Source: Escherichia phage UE-S1
Sequence record: ON568341.1
Length of the DNA: 64,000 bases
Strand: one strand, 5' to 3'
Position numbers and translations under genes: made by a program. Under the pieces are notes generated by a model, which made no database searches, had not been told where the DNA came from, and saw only the letters and a list, made by a program, of their open reading frames with translations. This document shows positions 44,583 through 46,060 of this stretch, in pieces (position 1 is the first letter of the stretch; every line of letters begins with the position of its first letter).

Positions 44583-45884
44583 ATGATGAAAGGGGTTCTT
44601 TGTTCAGACATTTATAAGATTTTGGCAGCACCACAATATGAATATAGTATTACTATGTTCAATGACGAAGGTGAAGGAACTATCAGTCCACAGGAAGCTA
44701 AGTGGTTTTATATTAGACCTGTGAATTTTATGATCCAAGCACCAAGTGGTGATGACGCAGTACGTCCAGAAGTTTATCTATGGAAAAGTACTGATATAAA
44801 AGATGAACAAACATTACAAGTTTTGAAACGCCTTAAAAACGTTTCAAATCAATATGGATATGGTTTCACTGTATATGACTTTGGATCTGGGAATTTACCT
44901 AAAAAGTTTTCTCACATTGCCATGCGTAATATGGAAGAAACTAAGCAAAATGATTTAACTGAAAGCCTTGAGGGAAGTGCTATGCGTTCTTATTACAAAC
45001 TACCGAGAGCAAAGATGGTAGTTGTTCATAAGAGTCGTGTGGAAGAAGGAATCAAGGGTTCACGATCTAGAAACATAAAAGAGATTTTTGTGGAATCTAA
45101 TGGTGAACGTAGACGAATGAGTACTACAAATTTACATGCAGCAAGAGCAATGACCCATCATTTGAATGAGGGCGGTGAGTATGGCGATAAATTTGGGTCT
45201 TATATAGAAGGTTCAGCACGCGACCTTGAAAATTTAAAAGCGTTGCTATCAGAACTAGAAATTGGTGGTCGAAGCCATTATGCTTCTAAAACTATGCAAT
45301 ACATAAATAATTTGAAAAATAACTTAAAGCTCGCTGGAACACCACGTGGATATCAGTCTCAACTGAGTGCACACAAGGAACTACCGAGAATTGGTAATAC
45401 ATATATAGATAATTTTGCTAATAAGTTAGGAACACTTGGCTCCGACCATGACCATAATAGAAGTTTTGCGAAGTATTTTCTACTCGATGAGTGTAAAATG
45501 TTATCTGAATATTTAAATACTATACAACAAAATATCAGTACTGACATCTCAGATCCAAAAGAAATAACACGAAGTGCAAAACGTGTATGTTTAGGTTGTG
45601 TACCAGTTGACGGTGAATTTGAATTTGGTGAAATCCCAGATAATGAAAATAAAGTCCTTATGTTTGGTAATAAAATCGTTGATTTGATTCAAGATGGTAT
45701 TATTAAGGATGCAGTAATGGGTATATGTGAGAAACCTTACATGGAACCATCTGACGCAAAATTTATCATTGCAGTAGGAAATTCTCTTTTAGGAAATAAA
45801 CCGAAAAAGCAGATCTTACTAGAACCTGAACTTGAATCGCTCAAGGAATGGGCAAATGGTAAAAATAGCGGGACAAACAAATAG
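44583..45884 (+). CDS. Hypothetical protein (433 aa)
   Basis: Strong RBS AAGGAG; no recognised motif. Confidence 0.45.
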
Positions 45885-45897
45885 AGAGTGATATAAT
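45868..45897 (+). promoter_or_regulatory. Promoter (GCGGGACAA-N15-TATAAT) followed by a perfect 11-bp hairpin (45901-45929)
   Basis: Motif family member; hairpin gtttgtcaagg-tgatgag-ccttgacaaac starts 4 nt after the -10 box. Confidence 0.4.
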
Positions 45898-45943
45898 GAT
45901 GTTTGTCAAGGTGATGAGCCTTGACAAACAGAGTTAAAAAATA

Positions 45944-45972
45944 TGGGACAGTATAAAAACCTGTGCTATAAT
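45944..45972 (+). promoter_or_regulatory. Promoter (TGGGACAGT…TGTGCTATAAT) for gp32
   Basis: Extended -10 at 45962-45972; long A-rich leader to ATG 46061. Confidence 0.5.
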
Positions 45973-46060
45973 GTAAAACGTTGAAGGAACAATTAAGTTT
46001 CTGAAACATTGAAGCCAATTAACAAATAACAAAGAAACCCCAATATCAAGGAAGAAATAT

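Follow-up and report, generated by a model that had tools for sequence, protein, structure and literature searches.

The 64,000-nucleotide stretch of Escherichia phage UE-S1 analysed here (sequence record ON568341.1; hereafter the window) encodes, at 46061-47113 on the plus strand, a 350-residue single-stranded DNA-binding protein (SSB) of the gp32 family, identified by Pfam, BLASTP and synteny. The intergenic region ahead of this gene contains two tandem promoter-like sites, a conserved and co-varying hairpin after each of them, and a structure-free leader of about 53 nucleotides (nt) with a box at a fixed position. We consider that the region upstream of 46061 is best read as the cis-regulatory region of a monocistronic gp32 transcription unit, acting mostly at the RNA level. 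In this region the window is 97% identical to the Asteriusvirus jumbo coliphages 121Q, PBECO4, G17 and phAPEC6.

The open reading frame (ORF) at 46061-47113 matches the Pfam gp32 family (PF08804) at 29.5 bits, above the gathering cut-off of 26.8. BLASTP aligns it with T4 gp32 over 220 residues from the N-terminus (25% identity, E 5e-7), including the common motifs KSxAE, RFLP and SCPV, and the homology takes in the N-terminal region that T4 uses for cooperativity. RefSeq relatives carry an SSB annotation. A phmmer search against PDB sequences returned no gp32 match.

Promoter-like sites, hairpins and leader

The distal promoter-like site, P1 (45861-45897, plus strand), is composed of an A-tract (45861-45865), the hexamer GGGACA (45870-45875), a TGn extension (45889-45891) and TATAAT (45892-45897). 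The proximal site, P2 (45936-45972, plus strand), has the same composition, with its A-tract at 45936-45941, GGGACA at 45945-45950, TGn, and TATAAT at 45967-45972. Both are therefore instances of GGGACA-N16-TATAAT (45870-45897 and 45945-45972) with an extended -10 and an upstream A-tract. The exact motif occurs three times in the window against 0.10 expected, which upholds the proposal of a first-pass annotation that two promoters of one motif family precede gp32. A relaxed scan (GRGAMA-N14-TGnTATAAT) yielded eight sites in the window, all on the coding strand and all upstream of ORFs. Predicted P1 overlaps the last codons of the upstream coding sequence (CDS).

As predicted promoters, P1 and P2 match the phage's class of 'divergent RpoD-like', sigma-70-type promoters. 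In phages CBB and GAP32, promoters of this class, with the -35 element TGAAACG, are found upstream of DNA-metabolism genes (PMC5259590). The likeness lies in a consensus -10, a non-canonical -35 and clustering before DNA-metabolism genes, and the exact TGAAACG -35 is present in the gp32 leaders of Mimasvirus and Eneladusvirus. In the window's genus, on the other hand, the -35-like element is GRGACA, and the tandem layout and promoter-proximal hairpins are not described in PMC5259590. An antisense promoter-like site at 45977-45950 is not conserved in phage A4 and was taken as chance.

Hairpin H1 (45900-45930, plus strand) follows P1. Its stem contains 11 perfect Watson-Crick base pairs (bp; 45901-45911 with 45919-45929), which confirms the perfect stem at 45901-45929 of the first-pass annotation; with flanking U-A and U.G pairs it reaches 13 bp around a 5-nt loop, and a folding energy of -19.2 kcal/mol (z = -7.5 against dinucleotide shuffles). 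The same annotation had set this stem-loop at the very 5' end of the P1 transcript, which is accurate in part. The canonical P1 start, 7 nt after the -10 at about 45904/45905, falls within the 5' arm of H1, and transcripts starting at 45903-45906 retain on folding a hairpin of 7-10 bp (-8.5 to -14 kcal/mol) with no 5' overhang. We rejected H1 as an intrinsic terminator: it is followed by AGAGUUAAAAAAU, without a U-run, and was not called by the terminator scan. Likewise, a 13-codon mini-ORF across H1 (45896-45937) is not conserved, being 6 codons long in A4 and reaching a stop after 1 codon in JNE01.

Hairpin H2 (45980-46007, plus strand; GUU / GA / AGGAAC / AAUUAA / GUUUCU / GA / AAC), which the first-pass annotation lacks, begins 8 nt after the P2 -10 and spans -81 to -54 relative to the AUG. 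It is a two-tier structure: a symmetric internal loop of purines (GA/GA) separates an outer stem of 3 bp from an inner stem of 6 bp, which is capped by an apical loop of 6 nt. Its folding z-score is -2.4 in the window and at or below -2.3 in 17 of 19 lineages. An Rfam scan of 45700-46300 at E <= 10 gave only noise, far below gathering scores. In the window phage, but not in its relatives, the 3' arm of H2 (GUUUCU) could instead pair with AGAAAC of the downstream box; this alternative was discarded.

The remainder of the leader, 46008-46060 on the plus strand, is 53 nt of A/C-rich sequence (55% A, 11% G, 17% U) that holds the Shine-Dalgarno (SD) sequence AAGGA at 46048-46052 (plus strand). The first-pass annotation had described an A-rich, low-structure leader of about 90 nt (45973-46060); that interval is indeed A-rich (50% A), but its first third holds H2, and the stretch free of structure is 46008-46060. 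H1 ends 77 nt upstream of this stretch, with P2 and H2 between. The last 52 nt contain 54% A, in the top 0.5% of all 52-nt segments on both strands, and with a minimum free energy of -0.8 kcal/mol they are among the least-structured 3.6% of segments. Among 71 gene leaders in the window, that of gp32 is first for A+C content and joint first for A content, with several others close behind; its A-richness is at the extreme, yet it is no outlier.

Within the leader lies a conserved box, AACAAAGAAAC (46028-46038, plus strand), with a degenerate copy, AACAAAU, at 46021-46027. The exact box has only this one copy in the window. A separate resemblance is seen in the leader of the ORF at 36126 (36066-36125), downstream of another promoter of the family: it has AUUAACAAAUA in common with the gp32 leader (46018-46028), perhaps by chance, given the AT-richness of the genome.

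Two further features of the promoter family were observed. In many of its members the predicted start, 3-6 nt downstream of the -10, carries a common T-rich element, 'TTTGT/TTGTA' (window positions 17258-17270, 36063-36075, 45898-45907 and 56772-56781; also P1 and P2 of JNE01 and RaK2). This element, which may be an extended promoter or initial-transcribed-sequence motif, also forms the basis of the 5' arm of H1 (UGUUUGUC). In several family promoters, the spacer from the -35-like element to the extended -10 encloses a dyad (window 51890-51921 and relatives). At 51893-51915, AGCGGG-AUAAA-CCCGCU followed by GUUUGUG is terminator-like and overlaps the promoter, and elsewhere the spacer dyads read CCACAA-N4-UUGUGG (Mimasvirus, Eneladusvirus) and CCUGAAC-N7-GUUCAGG (JNE01).

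Conservation among related phages

More than 25 distinct related leaders were compared. The intergenic region was read in 15 isolated relatives, drawn from Asteriusvirus, Alcyoneusvirus, Mimasvirus, Eneladusvirus, Munch-like and Hallingskeid-like phages, and in 31 IMG/VR loci. The lineage counts given below include related sequences and are not counts of independent events, and the homology of hairpins across genera is positional, the hairpins not being alignable base by base. Unstructured tails were measured from the local hairpin definition; whole folds of 140 nt gave spurious long-range A-U pairings.

Beyond the close 121Q group, little of the intergenic sequence can be aligned, but the architecture is kept. 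Rak2-like relatives have two tandem promoter modules, or three in JNE01, with a hairpin within a few nt of each, and the P1 module is found at the equivalent place in all relatives examined. The P2 -10 sits 83-123 nt 5' of the AUG in 21/21 Rak2-like lineages, and in 20 of these the first hairpin after it starts 4-8 nt downstream (median 6), at the position expected for +1. Between the last hairpin and the AUG, 15 of the 21 have 50-55 nt, and the four Munch-like lineages, phages that carry an extra hairpin, have 55-56 nt; altogether this distance is 50-56 nt in 19/21 lineages from at least four genera. The JNE01 intergenic region, of 278 nt (locus L006, 1225-1502), has three promoter-plus-hairpin modules as against two, and the module thus seems to duplicate as a unit.

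The two hairpins vary in sequence and remain paired. H1 is kept in 121Q, ph0011, TH47, A4 and JNE01, and among six Asteriusvirus variants A-U, G.U and G-C pairs are exchanged at four of the five upper stem positions. These pairs were counted anchored on the stem, MAFFT and RNAalifold having misaligned the 3' arms of A4 and JNE01. When the arms of H2 were swapped between lineages, the mean folding energy rose from -8.0 kcal/mol in native to -2.5 kcal/mol in chimeric hairpins, a loss of stability indicating that the 5' and 3' arms have co-evolved. In the Mimasvirus/Eneladusvirus group, RNAalifold recovered H2 with little variation within the group. Furthermore, G.U pairs make up 9 of 96 pairs in H1 and 14 of 175 in H2, and the sense strand folds better than the antisense strand for both hairpins (summed energies of -126.6 versus -100.2 kcal/mol for H1, and -168.9 versus -135.6 kcal/mol for H2). 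These observations argue for selection on the sense RNA and not on duplex DNA. Six other promoters of the family in the window are followed by no significant hairpin (z from +0.75 to -1.56), from which it follows that the hairpins belong to gp32 and not to the promoter class.

The box is equally constant in position. AACAAAGAARC is present at -28 to -35 in 21/21 Rak2-like leaders, 10 of which have another copy at -39 to -53; enrichment over the flanks is about 320-fold, and the columns of box and SD are invariant in leader alignment A1. In leaders of the Mimasvirus and Eneladusvirus type, the SD lies in the loop of a small hairpin, UUGAU-AAGGAA-AUCAA, at about -22 to -7 before the AUG. This element is invariant in 10 sequences and provides no covariation information, and its Asteriusvirus counterpart is a weak AUAU...AUAU.

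The same layout extends to distant gp32 genes. In a set comprising uncultured contigs (IMG/VR), Vibrio phage 2.275.O, PA5oct, Atu_ph07 and Phosso, genes at 38-59% protein identity keep the order of promoter, hairpin, two to four direct repeats and SD, and in five distant lineages, PA5oct and Atu_ph07 among them, the tail from the last hairpin to the AUG measures 47-53 nt. The repeats themselves differ: leaders on the uncultured contigs have UAGGCA/AAGGCA at a spacing of about 12 nt, UAGGCA being 57-fold enriched, while Atu_ph07 has AGCACAAUU three times, Phosso has RGCUCA three times and PA5oct has UUAGGA/UUAAGGA. They lie at about -25 to -90 from the start, and the last often merges with the SD.

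A leader of similar appearance was noticed before a gene for a 160-residue PHROG_862 protein (L055, 7948-8520, minus strand; 14 similar IMG/VR contigs), with a GC-rich hairpin, an A-rich stretch of about 45 nt and three CAAGAAAC-type boxes. Judged by sequence, the gene adjoins an apparent PD-(D/E)XK nuclease and a helicase. If the PHROG_862 protein is an SSB, this would be a notable link of the leader type with SSB genes.

Genes and signals flanking gp32

The gp32 transcription unit is closed by an intrinsic terminator at 47132-47151 on the plus strand (GGGGCAAC AGAG UUUGCCCC followed by a U-run), found by the terminator scan and also annotated in phage G17. Homologues of UvsX (47162-48301), the next gene after gp32, and UvsY (48301-48762) follow. 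The upstream gene (44583-45884) is annotated in relatives as a virion structural protein. An A-run near its end has five A in the window (45860-45884) and six in 121Q and G17; as a result, the stop moves from a TAG just before GGGACA to the TAG at 45882-45884, and the upstream CDS overlaps the -35-like element of P1.

A motif resembling T4 late promoters, ATAAATAATAT, occurs about 25-45 nt 5' of this structural gene and of the ORFs at 26274 and 23526 (window positions about 44540-44582, 26225-26273 and 23480-23525). We liken it to the ATAAATA reported for CBB and GAP32; there is none in the gp32 intergenic region. The ORF for the terminase large subunit (41889-44549) is 886 codons long, and its middle part is suggestive of a LAGLIDADG-type homing endonuclease, which suggests that the ORF carries an intein insertion.

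A candidate operator for gp32

Autoregulation of T4 gene 32 is a textbook case. The T4 protein holds down its own translation by means of a 5' pseudoknot at -67 and an unstructured, repeat-containing region over the ribosome-binding site (PMC3014915), nucleating at the 5' structure and spreading cooperatively over the repeats that cover this site (PMC3014915, PMC535899). The gene 32 mRNA is also the most stable T4 message, and RNase E cuts it at -71, just 5' of the pseudoknot (PMC3014915). In the gp32 leaders that have been characterised, those of T4, T2 and RB69 only, stability, high translation and autorepression are joined in one element (PMC3014915), and in RB69 the gene 32 operators diverge in sequence with their function kept (PMC535899). 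A 2010 review stated that diverse phages need study for gene 32 operators (PMC3014915).

The window shares several features with the T4, T2 and RB69 operators. The gene concerned is a gp32-family SSB; the leader, whether mature or primary, has a stable RNA structure at its 5' end, an end that is predicted in the window; an A-rich stretch that is free of structure and holds short direct repeats comes next and runs through an AAGGA(A) SD to the AUG; and several promoters, predicted in the window, serve a monocistronic-type unit that ends in a terminator. The T4-like layout suggested by the first-pass annotation holds to this extent, in that a structured element followed by an unstructured leader over the ribosome-binding site of an SSB gene is conserved across genera, although the element adjoining the leader is H2 and not H1. 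The differences are in the parts. A two-tier hairpin stands where the known operators have an H-type pseudoknot (about -67 to -40), the unstructured stretch is about 53 nt as against about 39 nt in T4, and it is A/C-rich (17% U) with AACAAAGAARC boxes, whereas that of T4 is A+U-rich with UUAAA repeats. The T4 5' end is made by RNase E at -71, whereas that of the window is predicted from initiation at P2, 0-2 nt before H2. Since there is no pseudoknot and UUAAA repeats are only half matched, the region should not be filed in the RNA family of the T4/T2/RB69 operators; it is best described, by analogy, as a putative hairpin-based variant of the same regulatory kind.

Two other known systems resemble parts of the arrangement. 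In the 5' untranslated stabilisers of E. coli ompA and papA, as in the window, a hairpin lies within 0-2 nt of the (here predicted) 5' end, as a block to RppH and RNase E requires; both are genes of the host, each has a single promoter and neither is linked to autoregulation, whereas the window has two hairpins on nested predicted transcripts. The T4 gene 43 operator also combines a simple upstream hairpin with sequence overlapping the ribosome-binding site, bound by a replication protein (PMC3014915). There, however, the polymerase reads the hairpin loop sequence-specifically about 40 nt before the AUG, and the window gives no hint of a polymerase.

The reading that we prefer, tentatively and at somewhat less than an even chance, is that 5'-terminal stabiliser hairpins are combined with an autogenous gp32 operator in which a hairpin takes the place of the pseudoknot. 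The first nucleotides of the P1 and P2 mRNAs would be locked in a stem-loop, H1 for P1 and H2 for P2, shielding the end from RppH and from 5'-end-dependent RNase E and giving a long-lived message. Secondary structures at the 5' end stabilise E. coli mRNAs, and both enzymes need single-stranded 5' ends (PMC3997798); for this reason the hairpins would most likely make the gp32 message long-lived. H2 and the structure-free A-rich stretch through the SD would then form a translational operator. Free gp32, in excess of single-stranded DNA, would load cooperatively on the leader RNA, bounded or nucleated at H2, and the resulting array would block ribosome binding as in T4 gene 32, with the two-tier hairpin in place of the T4 pseudoknot and AACAAAGAARC boxes in place of the UUAAA repeats. 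A bound protein array would account for the fixed hairpin-to-AUG distance and the clade-specific repeats more readily than ribosome loading by itself.

Several observations weigh against an autogenous operator. According to the 2010 review, RB49, a closer relative of T4, is without a gene 32 operator (PMC3014915), so autoregulation is not universal among gp32 genes and cannot be assumed from homology. The window protein is only 25% identical to T4 gp32; it lacks one Zn-ligand cysteine, and its C-terminal domain is a different one, rich in Pro, Ala and Thr and not acidic. With the predicted P1 start inside H1, part of the palindrome is not transcribed from P1. There is no potential for a pseudoknot between the H2 loop and the tail: in 13 lineages, loop-to-tail duplexes (best, -3.7 kcal/mol) did not surpass those formed with shuffled tails. 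In composition the leader is A/C-rich, not A+U-rich, and short A-rich unstructured leaders are common in the window. In an IMG/VR scan for box, SD and ATG, 8/120 among the matches listed precede a gp32 homologue; we rejected this combination as a gp32 signature, and since the box alone is not diagnostic the argument rests on position and architecture. Conservation of the box is, moreover, needless for a sequence-independent binder of single-stranded RNA, and may reflect another factor or translation efficiency. Literature searches on Rak2-like phages, for transcriptomics and gp32 regulation among other subjects, turned up no description of promoters, hairpins or gp32 regulation for the gp32 intergenic region, and no transcription-start map, gp32-RNA binding assay or repression assay.

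Many of these features would also suit a high-expression leader with no feedback, an explanation that we consider rather unlikely. H1 and H2 would be pure stabilisers, the leader and box a translational enhancer or ribosome-loading platform (for S1, for example), and the whole would serve stoichiometric SSB supply, gp32 being no regulator. A 'stable, well-translated mRNA' fits the identical anatomy: hairpins at +1 are suitably placed for 5'-end protection (PMC3997798), A-rich unstructured leaders are widespread among the window's genes, box and SD are also found in other viral contigs ahead of unrelated genes, among them those for a portal protein and for a small transcriptional regulator, and annotations in relatives record gp32 as abundant by mass spectrometry. 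Ribosome loading, however, has no obvious need for a spacing of 50-56 nt from hairpin to AUG across genera, nor for repeats that change sequence between clades yet keep their number and position. The lack of hairpins at the other family promoters also counts against this explanation, and the T4, T2 and RB69 leaders combine stability and high translation with autorepression.

It is improbable, though in keeping with some details of the sequence, that the boxes, and possibly the purine internal loop of H2, bind a sequence-specific factor that controls gp32 translation, such as a RegA-like repressor or host Hfq or CsrA. An invariant box at a fixed position would suit such a factor, as would the differences in the repeats from clade to clade, which look like co-evolution with a specific partner. 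The symmetric purine internal loop of H2 (GA/GA, AA/AA or GGA/GAA) and its purine-rich apical loop are typical protein-recognition features, and a similar hairpin with three CAAGAAAC-type boxes stands before the unrelated 160-residue protein in another viral lineage. Against this, the analysis identified no candidate regulator, the exact box occurs only once in the window and gives no sign of a regulon there, the box is low-complexity A-rich sequence, and T4 gp32 prefers its operator without strict sequence specificity (PMC3014915, PMC535899).

T4 origins consist of a middle promoter and a downstream unwinding element. A DNA-level role, whether H1 as the operator of a dimeric transcription factor or as a terminator or 3'-end protector of the upstream late gene, or the promoter and A-rich stretch as an oriF-type R-loop origin, is highly improbable: H1 does overlap the predicted P1 +1, 16 nt after the upstream stop codon, and Asteriusvirus is without the separate terminator found in other genera after the upstream gene and before P1, but H1 has no U-tract, its arms change yet still pair, its G.U pairs would be mismatched in duplex DNA and on the opposite strand, folding favours the sense over the antisense strand, and hairpin sequences unrelated across genera are ill-suited to a conserved DNA-binding protein.

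Returning to the autogenous operator, we raise the possibility, with less confidence than a balanced judgement would require, that gp32 genes of the jumbo T4 superfamily share an undescribed class of cis-regulatory RNA, a pseudoknot-free gp32 operator. Its plan would be a hairpin at the 5' end, about 50 nt of structure-free spacer with two to four clade-specific direct repeats, and an SD, and its members would be the Rak2-like genera, Vibrio phage 2.275.O, PA5oct-like phages, Atu_ph07 and uncultured relatives. Should the region prove to be only a leader for stability and translation, it would still be a clean, conserved case of 5'-end protection encoded in promoter-proximal sequence. The parts are compact, and the promoter, 5' stabiliser hairpin and unstructured leader could be used in phage engineering. 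A hairpin-based counterpart of the T4 operator would show how a non-specific binder of single-stranded DNA selects its own mRNA without a pseudoknot, and the related phages would supply a set of naturally co-varying operator-protein pairs with which to test gp32-RNA specificity. If the proposed class is real, the clade-specific repeats would record the co-evolution of each gp32 with its own mRNA, and SSB autoregulation would be ancestral and widespread, and no peculiarity of the T-even phages.

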